This document shows positions 6,288 to 64,000 of a stretch of 64,000 nt of DNA, one piece after another; position 1 is the first letter of the stretch; each line of letters opens with the position of its first letter. The position numbers were made by a program, and so were the translations under genes. A model generated the notes under the pieces. That model searched no databases. It worked only from the letters and a program-made list of their open reading frames with translations, and was not told where the DNA came from. The DNA lies in NCBI GenBank assembly GCA_017461395.1, contig JAFTYF010000025.1:13713-77712 (forward strand), read 5' to 3'. The DNA is from Ruminococcus sp. GTDB lineage: Bacteria; Bacillota; Clostridia; Oscillospirales; Ruminococcaceae.

Positions 6288-6992
6288 TCAAAGTGGCTTC
6301 TTCTTAATTTGACCGCTGTTGCGCGGATATTTTGTCGCAGTTTGCGATATTTTTTTTATTTCGATTATTCTGCGATTTTCATTTTCAAGCTCATAAATTG
6401 TTTCACATGAAACAATTCCTCCAAGTGTTTTAATTGCTTTTCCAGCAAGAGTTAAATCCTCATTAGGACCTTTCATAGCTATAAAACGACCGCCAACACG
6501 CACAAAAGGAATACAAAACTCGCTGAGAGTGGACAAATTTGCAACAGCACGAGCACACGATATATCAAATTTTTCGCGATATTCTGGCATTTTTGCAATA
6601 TCTTCAGCTCTGCCATGAACGAATTTCGCTTCAATTTCAAGCTTATCACAAAGCTTTTTTAGAAATTCGATTCTTTTGTTAAGACTATCGAGGAGAGTAA
6701 TTTTCAGCTCCGGAAGAAAAATTTTCAGCGGAACAGAGGGAAATCCGGCGCCTGTCCCAACATCAATAAGCGTTTCATTTCCGGAAAAATCAGCGTATTT
6801 GCACATTAAAATACTGTCAATAAAATGTTTATAGAGTATGTCAACAGGGTCAGTAATAGCCGTCAGATTGATATAATTATTGTATTCAATCAGAAAATCA
6901 CAGTAAATTCCGAGCTTTTTATGAGCATTTTCGGTAAGTTCAAGCCCGTATTTACTGAATTCTTTGCTGCAAAAATCAAAATCAGGAAGCAT
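6288..6992 (-). CDS. rsmG: 16S rRNA m7G527 methyltransferase
   Basis: [15 protein letters not shown] motif, SCARAVA; start moved to ATG 6992 (SD aaggggg); ORF track starts at 7016. Confidence 0.93.
6399..6414. other. parS site 3 (inside rsmG)
   Basis: TGTTTCACATGAAACA, encoding VSCET on the minus strand. Confidence 0.8.
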
Positions 6993-8871
6993 TTTCATCC
7001 CCCTTTCGATGTTCAAGCCAAACTGTAAGAAGTGAAATGTCTGCCGGTGATACGCCAGAAATTCTCGATGCCTGACCTATCGAAGCCGGCTGAACCTTGT
7101 TAAGCTTCTCAACAGCCTCCAATCTCAATCCATAAACATCATTATAATCAGTACCAGCCGGTAATTTTTTAGATTCCAGTTTGCGAATCGCATCAATCTG
7201 CGCCAACTGCTTTGAAATATACCCCTCATATTTGATCTGAAGCTCCACCTGTTCGCAAATTTCTGCGGAAAGCTCAGGTCTGTCGGGATCAAAAGGCGCC
7301 AGCATACCGTAACCAAGCTGCGGTCTGCGAATAAGATCAGCAAGCTTGAATCCGGAATTTATCGGCGCTGTATGATTTTCTTCAAGAAAAGCGTTTAATT
7401 TTGGAGACGGAGCAATATTCAGTGCTGAAACTCGCTTGATTTCTTGTTTGGTGAGCTCAATTTTATTAAGTAATTTCTGATATCTTTTCTCCGAAATAAG
7501 CCCAATTTTATGCCCTATCGGAGAAAGCCGCTGATCTGCGTTGTCCTGACGTAAAATAAGGCGATATTCGCTTCGTGAAGTCATCATTCGGTAAGGATCT
7601 GAACATCCTTTTGTCACGAGATCGTCAATGAGCGTACCAGTATACGAGCTTGCTCTGTCGAGAATCATCGGCGCTTTTCCACGAATTTTCAATGCTGCAT
7701 TGATTCCGGCGACAAGTCCCTGAGCAGCAGCTTCCTCGTAACCTGAGCTTCCGTTGAATTGTCCGGCACCATAAAGTCCGGAGATTTTCTTAAATTCCAA
7801 CGTCTGCGAAAGCTGAACCGGATCACAGCAGTCATACTCTATTGCATAAGCCGGCCGCATAATCTCAACGTCCTCCAACCCCTCAATTGTTCGCAGAAAC
7901 GCGAGCTGCACATCCTCCGGCAGCGAAGATGACATTCCCTGTAAATAGTATTCTTCCGTTGAAAGCCCCATCGGTTCAACGAACAGCTGATGTCTTGGCT
8001 TATCTGAAAATCTGACTATTTTGTCCTCGATAGAAGGACAGTATCTCGGCCCAACTCCCTCTATCCTTCCTGCATATAAAGGTGATCTGTCAAGGTTTGA
8101 AAGTATAATTTCGTGGGTATTACTATTTGTATAAGTTACATAACAGCTCACAATATTTTCAAGTCCCTCTGTCGAGGTTTCAAAAGAAAAAGGAACTATA
8201 TTTTCATCGCCATCTTGCCTTTCCATAATATCAAAATTGATACTTCTCTTGTTGACACGACAAGGAGTTCCTGTCTTAAAACGACGAAGTTCAACTCCAT
8301 TTTTGATGAGACTTTCGGATAAATAAGTGCTTGGAAGTGACGAATCAGGACCGCTTTCAAAGGAAGCCTCACCAATATGAATCTTGCCTTTGAGGTAAGT
8401 TCCTGTAGCAATAATAACCGCCTTTACTCCATATTCAGCTCCGAGGGATGTCCTCACACCAGAAATTCTTCCACTTTCTACGATAATTTCCGAAACCTCA
8501 GCCTGTTTCACAAAGAGATTTTTCTGTTTTTCGCAGACATTTTTCATGTATTCATGGTATTTCATTCTGTCCGCCTGCACTCTTAGACTATGGACAGCAG
8601 GTCCTTTTCCACGATTCAGCATACGACTTTGGATGAAACATTTATCCGCTGCCTTACCCATTTCGCCGCCAAGAGCGTCGATCTCACGGACAAGATGCCC
8701 CTTCGCAGTGCCGCCAATCGACGGATTACAGGGCATATTAGCAATCTGATCGAGTGAAATCGTAAACATTACCGTTTTGCATCCGAGTCGTGCAGAAGCA
8801 AGAGCCGCCTCAACTCCGGCATGACCAGCACCAACAACAGCAACATCAAAATCTCCCATTTTATAATTCAA
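6982..8871 (-). CDS. mnmG: tRNA uridine-5-carboxymethylaminomethyl modification enzyme MnmG (GidA)
   Basis: [14 protein letters not shown] motif, [36 protein letters not shown]. Confidence 0.97.
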
Positions 8872-54401: not shown

Positions 54402-55537
54402 TGACGAAAAAACTGCGGATTTTAGAGGTAAACAAGGCTTATTATCCTCATGTCGGCGGAATTGAAACGCTTGTGAGACTTTACTCCGAGGAGCTTGGCA
54501 GAAGCTATGATGCTGACGTGAAGGTTCTGGTGTGCCGTGATAATCGTGGAAAAACCGTGAGACAGCGCATAAACGGCGTGGAAGTTACCCGTGCCGCAAG
54601 TCTCGGAACTTATTTCAAGTGCCCGATTTCCTTTACTTTTATAAGACTTTTCAGAAAAATGGCGAAAAATGCGGATGTTATCCACATCCATATGCCGTTT
54701 CCGCTTGCGGACGCCGCTGCACTTCTGTCCGGATTCAAGGGAAGAATAGTACTTTCGTGGCACAGCGACATCGTAAAGCAGAAGAAACTCATGCTCGTCT
54801 ATAAACCGTTCATGAAATGGCTTCTCAACCGTGCGGACGCAATTGCAATTGCAACTCCCGGACATTATTCGGGCTCGGATCACCTCACAGACTACGTCGA
54901 AAAATGCCGGATAGTCCCCTATGGAATCGCTCCGGAGAAGTATCTCGGCATCGAAAGAAAGCCGGTTCTTACCGAAAAATGCAGCGATAAAAGAAGCGTG
55001 AAGGTATTCTTCACCGGACGTCTTGTCTACTACAAGGGCGTGGATGTGCTTCTGAAAGCGTTCCGCAGAGTAAAGGGCTGTGAGCTTTTTATCGCCGGAA
55101 CTGGCGATCTTGAACCTACACTTAAAGAATATGCCCACAGAAAAGGGCTTGAAAATAAAGTGCATTTTCTGGGATTTCTCTCCGACCGTGAGCTTAAACA
55201 GGCTTATGCTGACTGTGATATCTTCGTGCTTCCCTCGGTGGAAAAAAGCGAGGCATTCGGTATAGTTCAGCTTGAAGCCATGATTTACGGCAAGCCTGTT
55301 ATAAATACGCTTCTGCCGTCGGGAGTTCCTCATGTAAGCCTCGCCGGAGTTACCGGTCTTACCGTGAAAAAATCTGATCCGGCAGAGCTTGCAGACGCTA
55401 TAAATACACTTGCGGAAAACAAGGATCTGCGTGAAATCCTCGGAAAAGCGGCGGCAGAAAGAGTCTGCTCGCAGTTTAATGAAAAAATCGCTCTGGACAG
55501 CCTTTATCGGGTGCTGTCCGGAAAGGAGAACGGCTGA
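54401..55537 (+). CDS. Glycosyltransferase family 4 (WbpZ-like)
   Basis: YYPHVGGIE, HMPFP, WHSDIVKQ, GRLVYYKG, EAFGIVQLEAM. Confidence 0.85.
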   Translation: MTKKLRILEVNKAYYPHVGGIETLVRLYSEELGRSYDADVKVLVCRDNRGKTVRQRINGVEVTRAASLGTYFKCPISFTFIRLFRKMAKNADVIHIHMPFPLADAAALLSGFKGRIVLSWHSDIVKQKKLMLVYKPFMKWLLNRADAIAIATPGHYSGSDHLTDYVEKCRIVPYGIAPEKYLGIERKPVLTEKCSDKRSVKVFFTGRLVYYKGVDVLLKAFRRVKGCELFIAGTGDLEPTLKEYAHRKGLENKVHFLGFLSDRELKQAYADCDIFVLPSVEKSEAFGIVQLEAMIYGKPVINTLLPSGVPHVSLAGVTGLTVKKSDPAELADAINTLAENKDLREILGKAAAERVCSQFNEKIALDSLYRVLSGKENG

Positions 55538-56472
55538 TGAAAGCTCTTATTATAGGCGGTGCCGGCTTCGTGGGGGGGTATCTCATCCGTGAGCTTGACA
55601 GTGCCGGACAGGAGGTCTTTGCGACCTGTCTGGAAAACGAAAATATAAGCGGAAACTGTTCTGTCCGCACGCTGAATATCCTCGATGCGGACGCAGTAAG
55701 TGAAGTTATCGGCGAAATAAAGCCGGATGTGATATATCATCTTGCGGCGCAGAGCTCTGTTTCCCTGTCGTGGAAAAAACCTCAGCTCACAGCGGATATC
55801 AACGTTATCGGTACGATAAACGTTCTTGAAGCCGTAAAAAACTGCGAAAAAAAGGATATCCGCCTGATTCTTATAGGCTCCGGCGAGGAATACGGCTTCA
55901 TCCGGAAGGACGCTTGTCCGCTTACTGAGGAAGAACCGCTCAATCCCGGAAACATCTACGCCGCAACAAAGGCTTGTCAGGGAATGCTCGGCGAAATTTA
56001 CGCCCGTGCCTACAAAATGGATATCATCATGGTGAGAGCGTTCAATCACTCCGGACCGCAGCAGCTTCCGATGTTTGTTATTTCCGATTTCTGCCGTCAG
56101 ATAGCGCTTATCGAAAAGGGCGATTCTCCGGCTGTTATGAGCGTCGGAAATCTTGCCGCAAAGCGTGATTTCACCGATGTCCGTGACGTTGTAAGAGCAT
56201 ACCGACTTCTCGGTGAAAAGGGAGTCAGCGGACGCACATACAATGTCGGCAGAGGAAAAGCTGTTGAAATTCAGTACATTCTTGATACGGCGCTGAGCTT
56301 CTCGCAGAAGGAAATTGAAGTAAAACAGGATCCGGCAAGAATGAGAGCTTCAGACATTCCCGTTATTGAGCCGGATGTTTCACGGATTTCCGGCGATACG
56401 GGCTGGAAAGCTGAGATATCAATGGAAAAGACGATTGAAGATACATTAAATTACTGGAGGAATACACTATGA
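55537..56472 (+). CDS. GDP-4-keto-6-deoxy-D-mannose reductase-like SDR (Rmd-like)
   Basis: GGAGFVG, HLAAQSSV, GSGEEYG, YAATK, FNHSGP, GNLAAKRDFTDVRDVV. Confidence 0.7.
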   Translation: MKALIIGGAGFVGGYLIRELDSAGQEVFATCLENENISGNCSVRTLNILDADAVSEVIGEIKPDVIYHLAAQSSVSLSWKKPQLTADINVIGTINVLEAVKNCEKKDIRLILIGSGEEYGFIRKDACPLTEEEPLNPGNIYAATKACQGMLGEIYARAYKMDIIMVRAFNHSGPQQLPMFVISDFCRQIALIEKGDSPAVMSVGNLAAKRDFTDVRDVVRAYRLLGEKGVSGRTYNVGRGKAVEIQYILDTALSFSQKEIEVKQDPARMRASDIPVIEPDVSRISGDTGWKAEISMEKTIEDTLNYWRNTL

Positions 56473-57164
56473 AGAAATTTCTGACAATTCTGCTTGCAGT
56501 GTCAATGATGTCATGCGCATTTGCTTCATGCGGAAAAAAGGACAGCGGCAAGGATGATGAAAAAAGCTCCTCTGCTTCTGAGGAAAATCCCGCAGTCGGC
56601 AGATGGGTACCCGTTGAAAAAGAAGGTACTATCTTTGATATACTCAGCGAGGATGAAGCGTATATCTGCGCTGTACAGGATCTTTCTGAAACAATATACT
56701 TTGATGAGAAAGATAACTTCGTGTTCAGCGGAATGGAATTTTCCGGCGACAATTACGATTTCGACGGCGAAACATTCGTGCTTCACGCTTTCAGCGACAA
56801 TGACCTTACTATGAAGAAAACTGACGGCAGCGAGGAGCTTTCCGGCGAATTCCAGTGGACAAGCGGCGATCTCTACGACGACGTTGCAGGAGGTCTTACT
56901 GAAGCCGCCGCCGCTGACGGGCTTGATATCACAGGCGACAATATAAAGACATTCATGAACTGCACTGAGAACAGCACTTCCCTTGAAATCAGAATAAAAG
57001 TAACTGAATTTGAGCTTTCAGACGAAACTATCACAATCGGCGGAAAGATCTTCGGTGAGGATGAACTCAGGGACGCTGAATATTCCATTGACGGCGATAA
57101 AATGATTATTATAAATGCTCAGGATGAAGAAGTAGAGCTTGAAAGAATCACAGAAGCTGAGTGA
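56469..57164 (+). CDS. Acidic lipoprotein of unknown function
   Basis: Lipobox FAS-C, D/E-rich, beta-strand-like pattern. Confidence 0.7.
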   Translation: MKKFLTILLAVSMMSCAFASCGKKDSGKDDEKSSSASEENPAVGRWVPVEKEGTIFDILSEDEAYICAVQDLSETIYFDEKDNFVFSGMEFSGDNYDFDGETFVLHAFSDNDLTMKKTDGSEELSGEFQWTSGDLYDDVAGGLTEAAAADGLDITGDNIKTFMNCTENSTSLEIRIKVTEFELSDETITIGGKIFGEDELRDAEYSIDGDKMIIINAQDEEVELERITEAE

Positions 57165-57174
57165 GGTGATATCT

Positions 57175-57537
57175 ATGGCAGAAACTAAGCTTACTAACGA
57201 ATTTATCCGTGCTTTTGACGGACATGAAAAGGTAAAAATGACTAAGGCGGCGGAAAAACTGACGGAATTCGGTGAAAAACAGAACGATGTCAACGAGGCG
57301 CTTGCCGGAAATATCAACAGCCTTATCAAGCGTGTATGCGCTTTGGAGGACAAGCAGGAAAAAAATACTGAGATCATGAAGAAAATCGCTGCTGAGCTTG
57401 CCTCTTTCAAGCGCGAGCTGGACAGGGTCAGACTTACGGAAAAGCTGAATTCCGGCGCGATTGAAAGACTTTCGAATGCTATGTCTCTGGCGTCTGCTCC
57501 GGCTGAGGAAAGCTCCGGCGAAAACGGTGAGGAATGA
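57175..57537 (+). CDS. Hypothetical coiled-coil protein
   Basis: GAGGTGA SD before ATG 57175; heptad pattern. Confidence 0.65.
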   Translation: MAETKLTNEFIRAFDGHEKVKMTKAAEKLTEFGEKQNDVNEALAGNINSLIKRVCALEDKQEKNTEIMKKIAAELASFKRELDRVRLTEKLNSGAIERLSNAMSLASAPAEESSGENGEE

Positions 57538-57558: not shown

Positions 57559-57690
57559 TTGACAATTTCCGGGTTTTGTTATATTATTAATACTGGAAAC
57601 TGCTCTGCAATATTAAGCAGGGCTTCCGCTGATTCTGCATGAATAAACGGAGGGTTTCAGACTCTCCGTTTTATTATTTATTTAAGAAAG
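57559..57690 (+). promoter_or_regulatory. atp operon promoter and hairpin-containing leader
   Basis: TTGACA 57559-17 bp-TATTAT; hairpins at 57595-57627 and 57645-57671, the second followed by a T-rich tract. Confidence 0.55.
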
Positions 57691-57704: not shown

Positions 57705-58394
57705 ATGGATATTGCTGACAAGCTTCTTGAGGAGCTTGAATGCCGTGTAGCCTTTACTATACCAATTTTCGGGGGAATCCCCGTCCCTGAGTCGTGCGTT
57801 ATGACGTGGGGAATTATGGCGGTTATCGTACTTTTCTGCATACTGTTCGTCCGCAAGCTCAAAACAGTTCCCACAGGAGCGCAGAGTCTCATTGAATCGG
57901 GCATAAACTGGATGAATAACTTTTTCCTTGACATTCTCGGTCCGAAGGGAAAGAAATATCTGCCGATACTTGAAACGATGCTGATTTATATTGGTATCTC
58001 GAATATCGTCGGAATCGTGGGACTGCGTCCGCCGACAAAGGATCTTGGAGTTACCGCAACGCTTGCGATTTTCGCAATACTGCTGATACAGTTCTGCGGT
58101 ATAAAGGAGCGCGGCGGAAAAGGCTGGCTTCACAGCTTTATTGAGCCGATGCCGCTGCTTCTGCCGATCAAGATACTGGAGCTTTTCATCAAGCCGCTTT
58201 CGCTTTGTATGCGTCTTTTCGGAAACATCCTCGGCGCATTCGTTGTAATGGAGCTTATAAGGCTTGTTGTTCCGGTGGGAATCCCGCTGGTTCTCGGCTT
58301 GTATTTTGATATCTTCGACGGATGTATTCAGGCTTATGTATTTGTTTTCCTCACCTCGCTGTTTATGGCGGAGGCAATGGAGGAAGAAGAATAA
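57705..58394 (+). CDS. atpB: F0 subunit a
   Basis: RPPT, KPLSLCMRLFGN with conserved Arg, IQAYVFVFLT. Confidence 0.95.
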   Translation: MDIADKLLEELECRVAFTIPIFGGIPVPESCVMTWGIMAVIVLFCILFVRKLKTVPTGAQSLIESGINWMNNFFLDILGPKGKKYLPILETMLIYIGISNIVGIVGLRPPTKDLGVTATLAIFAILLIQFCGIKERGGKGWLHSFIEPMPLLLPIKILELFIKPLSLCMRLFGNILGAFVVMELIRLVVPVGIPLVLGLYFDIFDGCIQAYVFVFLTSLFMAEAMEEEE

Positions 58395-58413: not shown

Positions 58414-58635
58414 ATGGGATCAATCGCACTTGGCGCCGCAATCGCCGTACTTACGGGCGCAGGCGCAGGAATCGGAATCGGTCTTGCAACCTCAAAGGCT
58501 GCAGAGGCTATCGCACGTCAGCCAGAAGCTAAAGGCGACATCAACAAGGCGCTTCTTTTAGGATGCGCTCTTGCCGAAGCTACAGCTATCTACGGCTTTG
58601 TAATCGCAATTCTTATCATCTTTTTCCTTAAATAA
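58414..58635 (+). CDS. atpE: F0 subunit c, copy 1
   Basis: GAGAGIGIG, ARQPE loop, LAEATAIY; GGAGG SD. Confidence 0.95.
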   Translation: MGSIALGAAIAVLTGAGAGIGIGLATSKAAEAIARQPEAKGDINKALLLGCALAEATAIYGFVIAILIIFFLK

Positions 58636-58650
58636 CCGGAGGTATTTACT

Positions 58651-58872
58651 ATGGGATCAATCGCACTTGGCGCTGCAATCGCCGTACTTACAGGCGCAGG
58701 CGCAGGAATCGGAATCGGTCTTGCAACTTCAAAGGCTGCAGAGGCTATCGCACGTCAGCCCGAAGCTAAAGGCGATATCAACAAGGCACTTCTTTTAGGA
58801 TGTGCTCTTGCCGAAGCAACAGCTATTTACGGCTTTGTAATCGCAATTCTCATCATCTTTTTCCTTAAATAA
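58651..58872 (+). CDS. atpE: F0 subunit c, copy 2 (identical protein)
   Basis: Same 73-aa sequence as copy 1, with its own GGAGGT SD. Confidence 0.95.
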   Translation: MGSIALGAAIAVLTGAGAGIGIGLATSKAAEAIARQPEAKGDINKALLLGCALAEATAIYGFVIAILIIFFLK

Positions 58873-58892: not shown

Positions 58893-59381
58893 ATGCTGGA
58901 TATAGACCACTGGAATTTCATATGGGCAGCGGTGAACCTGATATTGCTGTTCATATTGCTGAAAATATTCCTTTTTAAACCGGTGAACAAGATCATGGAT
59001 GAACGTACCCGTACTATTCAGGATGATCTTGACGCTGCAAAAAAGTCAAAGGAAGAAGCTGAGGCTCTGAAAAAAGAGTATGAGGATACTCTCAGTGACG
59101 CCGACAAAAAGGCTCAGGAAATCATCATGAAGGCTCATGAGGACGCAAAATCGGAGAAATCTGCTATCCTGAAAAAGTCTCAGGAGGAGGCAGAACAGCT
59201 TATTTCCGACGCCAATAAAACTATCGAAAACGAGCGCAAAAGAGTTCTTGCGCAGGCTCAGACGCAGATCGCTGACCTTGCTATAGAAGCCGCCTCGAAA
59301 ATTATCGGTGAAAATCTTGATGACGAGAAGAATCGCCGCCTTGTGGATAAATTCTTATCCGATGAGGAGGTTGAAAGCTGA
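58893..59381 (+). CDS. atpF: F0 subunit b
   Basis: N-terminal TM helix, LFKPV..MDERT..I, coiled coil. Confidence 0.93.
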   Translation: MLDIDHWNFIWAAVNLILLFILLKIFLFKPVNKIMDERTRTIQDDLDAAKKSKEEAEALKKEYEDTLSDADKKAQEIIMKAHEDAKSEKSAILKKSQEEAEQLISDANKTIENERKRVLAQAQTQIADLAIEAASKIIGENLDDEKNRRLVDKFLSDEEVES

Positions 59382-61414
59382 TGGCAAATACCGATAAAGA
59401 GCTTCTGAAAGAGCTTCTCCGCCTTGACATTCCTCAGGATGACGCCGAAGCCGCAATGCATATCTTTACAGATTGTAAAGATGTTGCTGATACTCTTTCA
59501 AATCCGCTTGTCACTTCGGAGGAGAAGCGGGCTGTAATTTCACGGCTTTTCCCTGAGAGTATGCATAAATTCATACTCAGCGCCATAAAGACAAAAAGCG
59601 TTGAAAATATTCCCGCTGCACTTGAAGGCTACAACGACGCACTTCTTGAAAAACAGGGCTGCATAAAGGCTGTAGTCCGCTATGTTACGCCGCTTACCGA
59701 GGTTCAGCAGGCTGATCTTCGCAGGTACATCATGGAACGCTTCGTCAAGGAAGATGTTGCGATAGAGTACAGGCACGATCCCGATATCATCGGCGGATTC
59801 ATCCTCAATGCCGGCGATGTCGAGTACGATAAGAGCTACCGCAGCGCTCTCAGCCGCATGAAGGAAAATCTTCACAGCAAGGCTGCGGAATATACAGATA
59901 GTAATAAAGAAAAAAGTCCACTAAGCTCCATGAGCGATATAATTTCCATGCTGAAAACGGAAATTCAGGACTTCGATGTGAAATCCGGAGCAACCGAAAC
60001 AGGCTTTATCACACGCCTCGGTGACGGAATAGCTCAGGTCAGAGGCATGAATTCCGTTATGTACGGCGAGCTTGTTGAGTTTGAGACGGGTATCAGGGGT
60101 ATCGTTCAGAACCTCGAAGAAAAAACTACGGGCGTTGTGCTTCTCGGCGACGATCACGGACTTACAGAAGGCTCCTCCGTTATCAGAACGGGCAAGCGTG
60201 CCGGAATCGGCGTGAGCGGCGAGCTTTTAGGACGTGTCGTTGACGCTCTCGGTTCGCCTATCGACGGCGGAAGTCCGATAATCGCTGAGGATTACTTCCC
60301 TATCGAGCGTGAGGCTCCCGGAGTTATCGAGAGAAAGCCGGTAAACGTTCCGCTTCAGACGGGAATTCTTGCCATTGACTCGATGTTCCCTATCGGACGC
60401 GGTCAGCGTGAGCTTATCATCGGCGACAGACAGACCGGAAAAACCTCTATTGCTCTCGATACCATTATAAATCAGAAGGACAAGAACGTTATCTGCGTTT
60501 ATGTGGCTATCGGTCAGAAATCCTCGACCGTTGCACAGGTCGTGGGAACTCTTAAAAAATTCGGCGCTATGGATCACACAGTCGTTGTGTGCGCATCTGC
60601 GAGCGATCCGGCACCTTTCCAGTATATTGCCCCCTATTCGGGAACTGCGATAGCTGAATATTTCATGTCAAAGGGACAGGATGTCCTCATTGTGTACGAT
60701 GACCTTTCAAAGCACGCCGTTGCGTATCGTGCGATGTCGCTGCTTCTTCACAGACCTCCGGGACGTGAGGCTTATCCGGGCGATGTTTTCTATCTTCATT
60801 CAAGGCTTCTGGAGCGTTCAAGCCGTCTTGACGATGAACACGGCGGAGGTTCTCTGACTGCTCTGCCGATCATCGAGACTCTTGCCGGCGATATTTCGGC
60901 GTACATTCCTACAAACGTAATTTCTATTACGGACGGACAGATTTTCCTTGAAAGCGAGCTTTTCAATGCCGGACAGCGTCCTGCGGTGAACTACGGTCTT
61001 TCCGTATCCCGTGTAGGCGGAGCTGCACAGACAAAGGCAATGAAAAAAGCCGCCGGAAATCTTAGAATCGACCTTGCGCAGTTCAAGGAAATGGAAATTT
61101 TCACGCAGTTTTCGTCGGAGCTCGACCAGTCCACTACAGAGCTTCTCAATCACGGAAGAATGTTAACGGAAATGCTCAAGCAGCCGCTTTACAATCCGCT
61201 TCCGCAGTATGAACAGGTAATTCTGCTCTATGCGGCACAGCACGGATTTTTCAAGGATATTCCGGCAAAGGAGCTTAAAGAATACTGCTCCGAGCTGATG
61301 AGCTATATCGGCACATACGGTCAGGATATCATTGCTGAGCTTGAACAGAATAAAGTCCTCACCGACGACCTTGCAGAAAGAATCGAGCGCATTGTCACTG
61401 CATTCGAGGAATAA
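59381..61414 (+). CDS. atpA: Fused F1 delta-alpha subunit (AtpH-AtpA)
   Basis: About 165 N-terminal aa are OSCP/delta-like (LSNPLV..EK, DPDIIGGFI..GD..YDKSY); alpha follows with GDRQTGKT and PGREAYPGDVFY; no stop codon between them. Confidence 0.9.
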   Translation: MANTDKELLKELLRLDIPQDDAEAAMHIFTDCKDVADTLSNPLVTSEEKRAVISRLFPESMHKFILSAIKTKSVENIPAALEGYNDALLEKQGCIKAVVRYVTPLTEVQQADLRRYIMERFVKEDVAIEYRHDPDIIGGFILNAGDVEYDKSYRSALSRMKENLHSKAAEYTDSNKEKSPLSSMSDIISMLKTEIQDFDVKSGATETGFITRLGDGIAQVRGMNSVMYGELVEFETGIRGIVQNLEEKTTGVVLLGDDHGLTEGSSVIRTGKRAGIGVSGELLGRVVDALGSPIDGGSPIIAEDYFPIEREAPGVIERKPVNVPLQTGILAIDSMFPIGRGQRELIIGDRQTGKTSIALDTIINQKDKNVICVYVAIGQKSSTVAQVVGTLKKFGAMDHTVVVCASASDPAPFQYIAPYSGTAIAEYFMSKGQDVLIVYDDLSKHAVAYRAMSLLLHRPPGREAYPGDVFYLHSRLLERSSRLDDEHGGGSLTALPIIETLAGDISAYIPTNVISITDGQIFLESELFNAGQRPAVNYGLSVSRVGGAAQTKAMKKAAGNLRIDLAQFKEMEIFTQFSSELDQSTTELLNHGRMLTEMLKQPLYNPLPQYEQVILLYAAQHGFFKDIPAKELKEYCSELMSYIGTYGQDIIAELEQNKVLTDDLAERIERIVTAFEE

Positions 61415-61427
61415 GAGGTGAGCGGAT

Positions 61428-62333
61428 ATGGCTAATATGAGAGAGATACGGGAACGTATCGACAGCATAAAGCAGATACTGAAAATCACCAACGCTATGT
61501 ATCTTATATCCTCGTCAAAGCTTAAAAAGGCACGAAAGGCACTCGATGCGACAGAGCCTTACTTCTACAAGCTGCAGGAGACGATTGAAAGCGTTCTGGA
61601 GCATACTCCGCACATGAGGCAGATGTATTTCGACCGCCGTCTGGATATTCCTCCGGAGAAGCGGAAAAAGGGATATATCGTCATTACAGCCGACAAAGGA
61701 CTGTGCGGAAGCTACAACCACAACATACTTAAATTCACCGAAAACGAGCTTGCAAAATCCCCCGATATCAGCAATTGCTATCTTTTTGTGCTGGGACACG
61801 TCGGCAGAATGTATTTCACAAGCCGTCTGAAAAACAGCAGCAAGCCCTTCGTTGACGGAGAATTCCTCTATACTACGCAGAATCCCACGCTCTACAGGGC
61901 AATGGAGATTGCACAGCTGGTGCTTGATAAATTCGAGAACCGTGAGCTTGATGAGGTCTATGTTATCTACACCGACATGGTGACTTCAAACGTGCAGGAA
62001 GAAAGAATGATACAGCTTCTGCCGTTCAGCCGCAGACATTTCGGAAAAGCTCCGGACGGCACAATGAAGAAGCTCCCGAAAGCGTCGTTCCTTCCGTCGC
62101 CGGAAGAAGTTATGGCGCATCTCATACCGGATTACGCAAAGGGAATCATTTACGGCGCAATGGTAGAAGCGTTCTGCTGTGAGCAGCAGTCGAGAATGAC
62201 GGCTATGGATTCGGCTACCACAAGCGCAAAGGATATGATAAAACAGCTGTCACTGCTCTACAACAGAGCACGACAGGGCGCTATCACGCAGGAAATCACC
62301 GAAGTCGTCAGCGGCGCAGCCAGTCTGGAATAG
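61428..62333 (+). CDS. atpG: F1 gamma subunit
   Basis: KITNAMYLISSSKL, DKGLCGSYN, RMTAM..AT, RQGAITQEITEVVSGA. Confidence 0.96.
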   Translation: MANMREIRERIDSIKQILKITNAMYLISSSKLKKARKALDATEPYFYKLQETIESVLEHTPHMRQMYFDRRLDIPPEKRKKGYIVITADKGLCGSYNHNILKFTENELAKSPDISNCYLFVLGHVGRMYFTSRLKNSSKPFVDGEFLYTTQNPTLYRAMEIAQLVLDKFENRELDEVYVIYTDMVTSNVQEERMIQLLPFSRRHFGKAPDGTMKKLPKASFLPSPEEVMAHLIPDYAKGIIYGAMVEAFCCEQQSRMTAMDSATTSAKDMIKQLSLLYNRARQGAITQEITEVVSGAASLE

Positions 62334-62370: not shown

Positions 62371-63774
<1,404 letters not shown>

Positions 63775-63776
63775 TC

Positions 63777-64000
63777 ATGGCTAAGACGTTTCATCTTGAG
63801 ATCATCGCTACCGACCGTGTTTTCTATAAGGGAGAATGTGAGCACCTCGTTATCACCGCTATCGACGGACTTCTCGGAATTATGGCTGGTCATGAACCGC
63901 TTGTAACAGCGCTTCCTGACGGCGAACTGAAATACATGGTTGACGGAAAATGGCACTATGCCGCCATTTCGGAGGGATTTATACAGGTTATGCCGGACAA
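63777..64000 (+). CDS. atpC: F1 epsilon subunit (partial, runs off the window)
   Basis: MAKTFHLEIIATDRVFY..GLLGIMAGHEPLVTAL. Confidence 0.9.
   Translation, partial: MAKTFHLEIIATDRVFYKGECEHLVITAIDGLLGIMAGHEPLVTALPDGELKYMVDGKWHYAAISEGFIQVMPD

Follow-up and report, generated by a model that had tools for sequence, protein, structure and literature searches.

The 64,000-nucleotide stretch of Ruminococcus sp. DNA analyzed here (hereafter the window; contig JAFTYF010000025.1 of assembly GCA_017461395.1, positions 13,713 to 77,712 of the forward strand) contains, close to its end, an operon for an F-type ATP synthase in which the gene for the delta subunit is fused in frame to the 5' side of the gene for the alpha subunit. 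The genes of the operon, all on the + strand, are arranged in the order atpB, atpE, atpE, atpF, delta-alpha, atpG, atpD, atpC, and alpha is thus located between delta/b and gamma. The fusion open reading frame (ORF; 59381..61414 in window coordinates) encodes 677 amino acids followed by the stop codon and is preceded by the Shine-Dalgarno (SD) sequence GAGGAGG, with a pairing energy of -14.0 kcal/mol. Direct reading of the sequence reveals no internal stop codon in the 59381..61414 frame, in agreement with the first-pass annotation of this DNA, which had proposed a single ORF composed of a delta/OSCP domain, a short linker and alpha, with no stop codon between the two subunits.

This architecture is borne out by the comparison with protein family profiles. 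In Pfam, residues 19-164 of the 677-residue product match OSCP (PF00213) with 85.3 bits (cut-off 22.3; positions 23-172 of the 172-position profile), followed by ATP-synt_ab_N (207-271), ATP-synt_ab (328-543) and ATP-synt_ab_C (550-675). Among the NCBIfam models, the atpA model TIGR00962 covers residues 184-676 (748.7 bits against a cut-off of 484.45, positions 4-498 of 503) and the delta model TIGR01145 scores 72.3 bits, above its cut-off of 57.5. The protein therefore qualifies as an alpha subunit, with a full-length match, the beta-barrel, nucleotide-binding and C-terminal domains and a Walker A motif, and also as a delta/OSCP protein, given that PF00213 and TIGR01145 both exceed their curated cut-offs. 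The delta part consists of an N-terminal domain (NTD; residues 1-93, 59381..59659), a six-helix bundle delineated by AlphaFold2 (AF2) modeling, Foldseek comparison and the ratio of nonsynonymous to synonymous substitution rates (dN/dS), and a C-terminal, b-binding domain (CTD; residues 94-166, 59660..59878), in which the OSCP match extends to the last profile position (172/172), AF2 predicts a beta/alpha fold and the sequence aligns with the delta part of the PDB chain 9jc1_I. The linker quoted in the first-pass annotation, KAAEYTDSNKEKSPLSS, was found as given and occupies 17 residues (167-183, 59879..59929); it is hydrophilic and fast-evolving, and the predicted local distance difference test score (pLDDT) falls below 50 around residues 173-184. 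Next comes the ancestral start codon of alpha, Met184 (ATG, 59930..59932), now internal and lacking a ribosome-binding site (anti-SD energy -1.0 kcal/mol), which opens the alpha subunit proper (residues 184-677, 59930..61411). The latter is delimited by the TIGR00962 match, is 68-73% identical to the free alpha subunits of the sister genera in which the two genes are split, and contains the Walker A motif (P-loop) GDRQTGKT, identified by reading the sequence, at residues 348-355 (60422..60445).

The AF2 models are of moderate confidence (mean pLDDT 72 for the whole chain and 70 for residues 1-200). They include six helices in the N-terminal domain (residues 3-15, 19-31, 33-40, 46-56, 59-70 and 74-91; pLDDT 66-87), a beta/alpha domain within residues 94-174, the low-confidence linker and then the N-terminal helix of alpha; just 2-3 residues separate the two delta domains. 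When the delta-only model was compared with known structures using Foldseek, both domains were covered by the delta subunits of Bacillus PS3 (6n2y_I, 166 columns, TM-score 0.66) and of the chloroplast enzyme (6vmb_d, 178 columns, TM-score 0.72). The modeling thus points to the complete two-domain delta fold, that is, a six-helix bundle plus a beta/alpha domain.

The fusion is conserved throughout the genus. A homologue search limited to proteins of fusion size and scored on residues 1-215 yielded 793 homologues; the best 120 of these are nearly all 672-678 amino acids long and combine OSCP with the three alpha domains, with identity down to 63%. The homologues come from NCBI, ENA, JGI and Logan assemblies, some are named Ruminococcus flavefaciens and one UniRef entry is labeled 'Multifunctional fusion protein'. 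The identical 677-residue protein is encoded on 6 independently assembled contigs (NCBI, ENA, Logan), and the same operon is present in four relatives that were retrieved together with the flanking regions, including the R. flavefaciens isolate genome GCA_900108555. Among the 121 species-level genomes of the genus, 117 contain an OSCP match, which in 111 lies within a frame of fusion length; separate atpH and atpA genes are accordingly not the arrangement of the close relatives. In 14 of the 111 fused genomes, a second, canonical free delta is encoded as well, and 6 of the 117 OSCP-bearing genomes have the canonical delta type only. Weak OSCP matches (profile positions 70-166, 21-26 bits) were also observed within frames of 756-765 amino acids in three genomes of the genus (G381 C19:34967-35251, G339 C13:57441-57725 and G383 C13:1774-2055). 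Given this conservation, the interpretation of the fusion as an assembly or sequencing artefact, with a stop codon lost by error, or as a pseudogene in an operon that decays while the cell relies on a V/A-type ATPase, is refuted and retains a practically negligible probability: a V/A-type ATPase is indeed encoded in the genome, but the same protein was assembled independently 6 times, the fusion is found in 111 genomes and in isolates, indels are always in frame, and every domain is under strong purifying selection (see below). The delta-alpha fusion is a real, conserved gene fusion that encodes a single polypeptide.

The absence of a separate atpH, another claim made at the outset, holds for the whole assembly (2.08 Mb, 93% complete), in which the genome-wide search detected neither a further OSCP match nor another F-type alpha. 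Likewise, no close free-standing homologue of the delta part was found in a word-based search, which gave only contig-end fragments of the same fusion. A library search with the delta part returned only fragments and free deltas of 167-170 amino acids with 25-43% identity, evidently because alphas stand for the fusions at 50% clustering.

The manner in which this gene is translated can be assessed from a junction alignment that covers eight species of the genus. Three of them, the window and its two closest relatives, have ATG where alpha formerly started; the other five, including the R. flavefaciens isolate, have GTA, AAG, ACA, GAG or TCA there, none of which is a start codon. The linker, in which indels of 1, 4 and 6 codons occur, all of them in frame, is conserved less than any other part of the protein, with species sharing 11-39% identity. 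The potential for initiation was measured as the pairing energy of the 16S anti-SD sequence with the 18 nucleotides upstream of a start. The eight true starts of the operon have values of -9.3 to -14.0 kcal/mol, the strongest being that of the fusion, as opposed to +0.4 to -2.6 kcal/mol at codons 184 and 190 of the junction, which is in line with the original observation that the internal Met codons have no SD sequence. In the closest split genera, delta ends in ...RR-stop, encoded by CGG AGG TGA, so that the GGAGG serving alpha is embedded in the last codons of delta; across the split genera, GGAGG is located 4-19 nucleotides ahead of the alpha start or overlaps it. In the fused genus, both the delta stop and the embedded alpha SD are gone.

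Initiation at or near Met184 would supply free alpha and yield an enzyme of the composition (delta-alpha)1-alpha2-beta3, with the normal 1:3 ratio restored. The ATG retained at codon 184 in three species and the A-rich 20 nucleotides upstream of this codon are compatible with such a mechanism. However, given that the start codon is not conserved, that the SD sequence is absent, that the GGAGG of the sister genera was lost along with the stop codon and that there is no other conserved in-frame start ahead of the beta-barrel of alpha, internal initiation is very improbable; the comparative data argue against a normal-size alpha being made from an internal start, and the gene most likely yields a single product from one start. 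Post-translational cleavage within the linker, which would free delta and alpha with subsequent degradation of the excess delta, appears improbable. Cleavage would abolish the stoichiometry problem, and the linker is exposed, hydrophilic and predicted to be disordered; yet it contains no motif conserved between the species of the genus, varies in length by up to 6 codons, and is not accompanied by a protease gene in the operon of the window or in those of the four relatives. Moreover, destroying two thirds of the delta produced would bring no gain over the split arrangement of the sister genera, and an engineered fusion of this kind is stable and functional uncleaved (PMC12229609). Thus, among the three outcomes that the first-pass annotation had offered, the presence of three delta domains in each F1 has the strongest support, whereas internal initiation is disfavored by the loss of the start codon and SD sequence, and processing by the lack of a conserved linker motif. 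A literature search for Ruminococcus proteomics reporting the size of alpha returned nothing relevant.

The selection acting on the delta part was estimated initially among four GTDB species of the genus, for which synonymous sites proved to be saturated, and then with closer relatives. At unsaturated synonymous distances, the N-terminal domain has a dN/dS of 0.12-0.28 and the C-terminal domain one of 0.05-0.14, compared with 0.24-0.64 in the linker and 0.04-0.06 in alpha. The fused genus was further compared with the split sisters in two matched pairs of equal alpha divergence. At an alpha distance of ~0.14, the N-terminal domain has diverged by 0.75 in the fused genus vs 1.04 in the split sisters, and the C-terminal domain by 0.23 vs 0.76; at ~0.10, the respective values are 0.41 vs 0.75 and 0.16 vs 0.63. 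The C-terminal domain of the fused genus is therefore constrained ~3-4 times more tightly than that of the split sisters at matched alpha divergence. Given the low dN/dS and the slower evolution of delta compared to the split sisters, the constraint on the N-terminal domain has not been lifted, and these rates indicate that it is under purifying selection that is not relaxed relative to the split relatives.

Within the family, most genomes encode a free delta of ~180 amino acids (130-185 bits), and a second group has either short free deltas (167-177 amino acids, 77-107 bits) or fusions. Full-length fusions are found in the genus of the window and in genus g109; a partly truncated fusion (623 amino acids), in which part of the N-terminal domain is kept, is present in g34, and fusions of alpha with delta's C-terminal domain only (580-600 amino acids) occur in at least nine genera, one of these proteins being annotated as Pygmaiobacter massiliensis (MCI6640131.1). 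The truncated-fusion loci, L049-L058, represent genera g34, g110, g84, g128, g94, g58, g113, g100, g54 and g15. No separate gene for the delta N-terminal domain was detected in the complete a-c-b-[fusion]-gamma-beta-epsilon operons of the fused forms; one genome (G058) has an additional operon with a free delta beside the short fusion.

A maximum-likelihood phylogeny built from the N-terminal 300 residues of alpha nests the genus of the window (support 99*) within a clade of split genera (g17 at 95*; g62, g152 and g162 at 97*). The clade that includes g109 and most of the short forms lies apart from it, as does a deep-branching clade with two other short forms. This placement implies that the fusion in the window is an independent, genus-level event. 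The alpha tree rejects a common origin for all fusions of the family; delta and alpha have become fused on at least two or three occasions. After fusion, the N-terminal domain was lost in the other clade and kept in Ruminococcus. We also considered the possibility that linker length follows the retention of the N-terminal domain, but the correspondence is not clean because the linker of the g109 fusion is short although that fusion is full-length. A different arrangement was observed in locus L046 (genome G173, genus g17), where a free delta of 255 residues contains its C-terminal domain twice (NTD-CTD-linker-CTD) and is followed by alpha as a gene of its own; two b-binding domains in one delta could offer a further natural way of acquiring more than one stalk.

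The delta-alpha fusion class is already on record; what has been characterized previously is the truncated, engineered form, with natural genomes mentioned only briefly. In the engineered Bacillus PS3 enzyme (Ueno et al., Nat Commun 2025, PMC12229609; PDB 9JC1), delta residues 2-104 were removed and residues 105-178 were joined to alpha. This deltaDeltaN-alpha enzyme carries up to three b2-a stalks, with H+/ATP raised from 3.0 to 5.8, and its authors concluded that the delta N-terminal domain, located on the symmetry axis, restricts the enzyme to one stalk (PMC12229609). The chains 9jc1_I/J/K are the best PDB matches of the whole modeled chain in the Foldseek comparison (579-580 columns, TM-score 0.80-0.82, 50-51% identity), and 9jc1_I aligns by sequence to window residues 93-223. 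In both proteins, the delta C-terminal domain is joined in frame, via a short linker, to the N-terminus of alpha, and no free delta is present; unlike 9JC1, where the N-terminal domain is missing, the window protein retains this domain in intact form, subject to selection, and its linker is longer. Accordingly, it shares with the deltaDeltaN-alpha type the CTD-alpha fusion without a free delta but not the absence of the N-terminal domain that leaves the axis of the crown free.

Natural N-terminally truncated fusions have been named as well (Acidaminococcus fermentans, UniProt G4Q3K6 and A0A1I2C5T3; PMC12229609). Together with MCI6640131.1, they resemble the window protein in the in-frame joining of delta and alpha, in the a-c-b-[fusion]-gamma-beta-epsilon order and in the absence of atpH, and differ from it in that only the delta C-terminal domain (OSCP profile positions ~100-172) and almost no linker are present and that, in the alpha tree, they belong to clades other than that of the window's genus. 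A survey by Mulkidjanian, Kuchevskiy and Dibrova (bioRxiv 10.64898/2026.10.01.756066) devotes one sentence to delta-alpha fusions, which involve either the whole delta-homologous region or its C-terminal part only; its main text gives no taxa for the fusions and no analysis of translation, selection or consequences. The link drawn in that survey between fusion and shortening of delta fits the window mildly, given that the delta part is ~10 residues shorter than PS3 delta, similar to the split sisters. Neither Ueno et al. 2025 nor the 2026 survey describes the full-length form, its restriction to a Ruminococcus genus, translation into a single product or selection on the N-terminal domain, and a general literature search on the fusion returned nothing relevant.

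The contrast with the mycobacterial b-delta fusion (PDB 7NJK, 9VKP), drawn already in the first-pass annotation, is correct. In both cases a stator subunit is joined to delta, which is not free; but in mycobacteria the partner is b, attached at the N-terminus of delta in one copy such that the stoichiometry is unchanged, whereas in the window the partner is alpha, attached at the C-terminus of delta and present in three copies. The fusion in the window is not of this Actinomycetota type because atpF is a separate gene with its own stop codon (59379-59381) and the fusion has its own ATG and SD sequence. Compared with canonical free deltas (PS3, 6N2Y chain I, and the 167-173-residue deltas of the sister genera), the fold is the same two-domain one, and the sister deltas are 27-35% identical to the delta part of the window and share its short N-terminus; the difference is that delta is not free here, the ...RR-stop with its GGAGG having been replaced by a translated linker.

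Taken as a whole, these observations are best explained by a selected, genus-level fusion with a single product of ~74 kDa and an F1 head of the form (delta-alpha)3-beta3, an interpretation that we consider probable. Under this scenario, the ancestor of the genus would have lost the atpH stop codon together with the alpha SD sequence embedded in the last codons of atpH, and translation from one start, coupled to that of atpF, would produce a ~74 kDa polypeptide in which a complete delta (the N-terminal domain and the C-terminal domain that binds b) is connected to alpha by a flexible linker, with a length of ~11-18 residues within the genus. Because the genome encodes no other delta and no other F-type alpha, the F1 head would take the form (delta-alpha)3-beta3, with three tethered delta units in place of a single free one. 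The covalent tether would replace or reinforce the usual non-covalent grip of delta on the alpha N-termini, with each C-terminal domain presumably sitting on its own alpha by analogy with 9JC1. One delta could assume the canonical apical pose, in which its N-terminal domain lies on the pseudo-threefold axis, and bind the b2 stalk; this domain would still be required, given the purifying selection on it. The feasibility of a delta-alpha design follows from the assembly and activity of the engineered deltaDeltaN-alpha PS3 enzyme (PMC12229609). The other two delta units might either be undocked on their linkers, in a single-stalk enzyme, or recruit further b2-a stalks. A single-stalk enzyme with two undocked delta units appears slightly more likely because the axis has room for just one N-terminal domain and the model leaves a mere 2-3 residues between the delta domains.

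The alternative, a natural multi-stalk enzyme, is possible but doubtful. Each tethered C-terminal domain would recruit its own b2 and a, so that every c-ring would be served by two or three stalks with their proton channels. The H+/ATP ratio would rise, enabling a fermenter to synthesize ATP at its low ion-motive force, and the N-terminal domains would find room above the crown or around it, perhaps forming a cap. In PS3, a tether through the C-terminal domain sufficed for up to three b2-a stalks and the corresponding increase of H+/ATP (PMC12229609); from residue ~93 on, the window protein matches the 9JC1 chain best among PDB entries, and the tightened constraint on the C-terminal domain and the presence of Rnf in a strictly fermentative lineage are consistent with this possibility. 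In addition, helix 1 of the window c subunit contains the motif GxGxGxGxG, which is typical of small c-rings. Conversely, the N-terminal domain, held to limit the stalks to one (PMC12229609), is retained and under selection here, undocked N-terminal domains may clash given the 2-3 residues between the delta domains, and the a and b genes are not duplicated.

Several considerations weigh against the favored (delta-alpha)3-beta3 interpretation. The product size, the stoichiometry and the number of stalks are all deduced from sequence. The single axial site has no room for all three N-terminal domains, and two delta units would have no established role, which looks wasteful; furthermore, the other clade of the family lost the N-terminal domain after fusion, and a tethered delta can thus do without it. 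Cleavage of the linker by a protease keeps a small probability. The moderate confidence of the AF2 models makes the domain placement in a monomer weak evidence, and the comparison of rates with the split sisters consists of just two matched pairs.

Upstream of the fusion, the operon begins with atpB (Fo a subunit, 229 amino acids, 57705..58394; ATP-synt_A, 152 bits), whose ATG has an anti-SD energy of -12.8 kcal/mol; the open frame starts already at 57639, and the 229-residue form follows the gene calls of the relatives, which are also of this length. Two atpE genes for the c subunit (73 amino acids each; 58414..58635, ATP-synt_C 65.9 bits, and 58651..58872, 65.8 bits) form a tandem pair that is kept in the relatives, and atpF (b subunit, 162 amino acids, 58893..59381; ATP-synt_B, 103.6 bits) overlaps the fusion by one base, its TGA stop and the fusion ATG sharing the sequence TGATG. 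Downstream are atpG (gamma, 301 amino acids, 61428..62333; Pfam ATP-synt, 307 bits), atpD (beta, 464 amino acids, 62380..63774; ATP-synt_ab, 253.7 bits) and atpC (epsilon, 63777..64000), an open-ended ORF that runs past the end of the window and corresponds to a 136-residue ATP-synt_DE gene at the same place in the relatives. The tandem atpE copies encode identical proteins, with 212/222 nucleotides identical and all 10 differences synonymous. The pair is kept across the genus and in the split sister genera g17, g152 and g162, and a single atpE is found in g62, g109 and one fused operon of the genus (L073). A connection between this duplication and the fusion is therefore rejected: being present in split sisters and missing from some fused operons, the duplication predates the fusion and is unrelated to it.

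Two lineages of F-type operons coexist in the family, and both are present in 14 genomes of the genus. The lineage of the window (58414-58872; L073) combines a short or fused delta with a c subunit of the form GIGIG...AEATAIY, which lacks Na+ ligands and presumably is H+-coupled. The second lineage (L072, G339 C8; L074, G402 C5) combines a canonical free delta with the c-subunit form GIGEG...AE(S/T)TG(I/L)Y, which resembles a two-carboxylate Na+-binding motif. In four operons with short fusions (L051, 4813-5205; L055, 4767-5180; L057, 5065-5448; L054, 4744-5154), the c-subunit gene has 127-137 codons and encodes a signal-peptide-like N-terminal extension, rich in Ala, Thr and Glu, ahead of the two-helix hairpin. 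Between the glycosyltransferase/epimerase genes and atpB of the window, there are two ORFs (56469-57164 and 57139-57537) for which the gene calls of the relatives contain no Pfam domain; one product is lipoprotein-like (231 amino acids), and the other (132 amino acids, 116-120 as called in relatives) has a coiled-coil look by eye. This pair holds its position in L059-L061; by eye, the ORFs directly upstream of atpB are unlike atpI/atpZ, and no search aimed at either was made. Elsewhere in the same genome, contig C54 encodes RnfD (328 bits; 6580-7464) and the A (591 amino acids) and B (470 amino acids) subunits of a V/A-type ATPase (54672-57505), and the cell thus has a ferredoxin-driven ion pump and a second rotary ATPase. 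Given that the genome encodes Rnf and that the c subunit without Na+ ligands makes H+ coupling likely, operation of the fused enzyme as an H+-coupled synthase at low proton-motive force is plausible.

The usual stoichiometry of ATP synthase, with three alpha subunits, one delta, one stalk and one proton channel, is commonly treated as fixed. The Ruminococcus fusion is a natural counter-case, in which delta is fused to alpha and the N-terminal domain is kept and conserved genus-wide, and the count of stalks in this enzyme would directly test the conclusion that the N-terminal domain limits their number (PMC12229609). If the multi-stalk possibility is true, the N-terminal domain in itself is not what restricts the number of stalks, H+/ATP would be well above c/3, and a strict fermenter would be able to use the small Rnf-generated gradient for ATP synthesis. 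The split, full-length-fused and N-terminally truncated forms within one family provide a comparative series for the evolution of the stator. The genus includes cultivable rumen cellulose degraders, among them R. flavefaciens, so that protein-level tests would be ordinary work. Finally, the fused operon is the sole F-type ATPase in most species of the genus, and its properties therefore bear on energy conservation in the fibre degraders of the rumen and gut.

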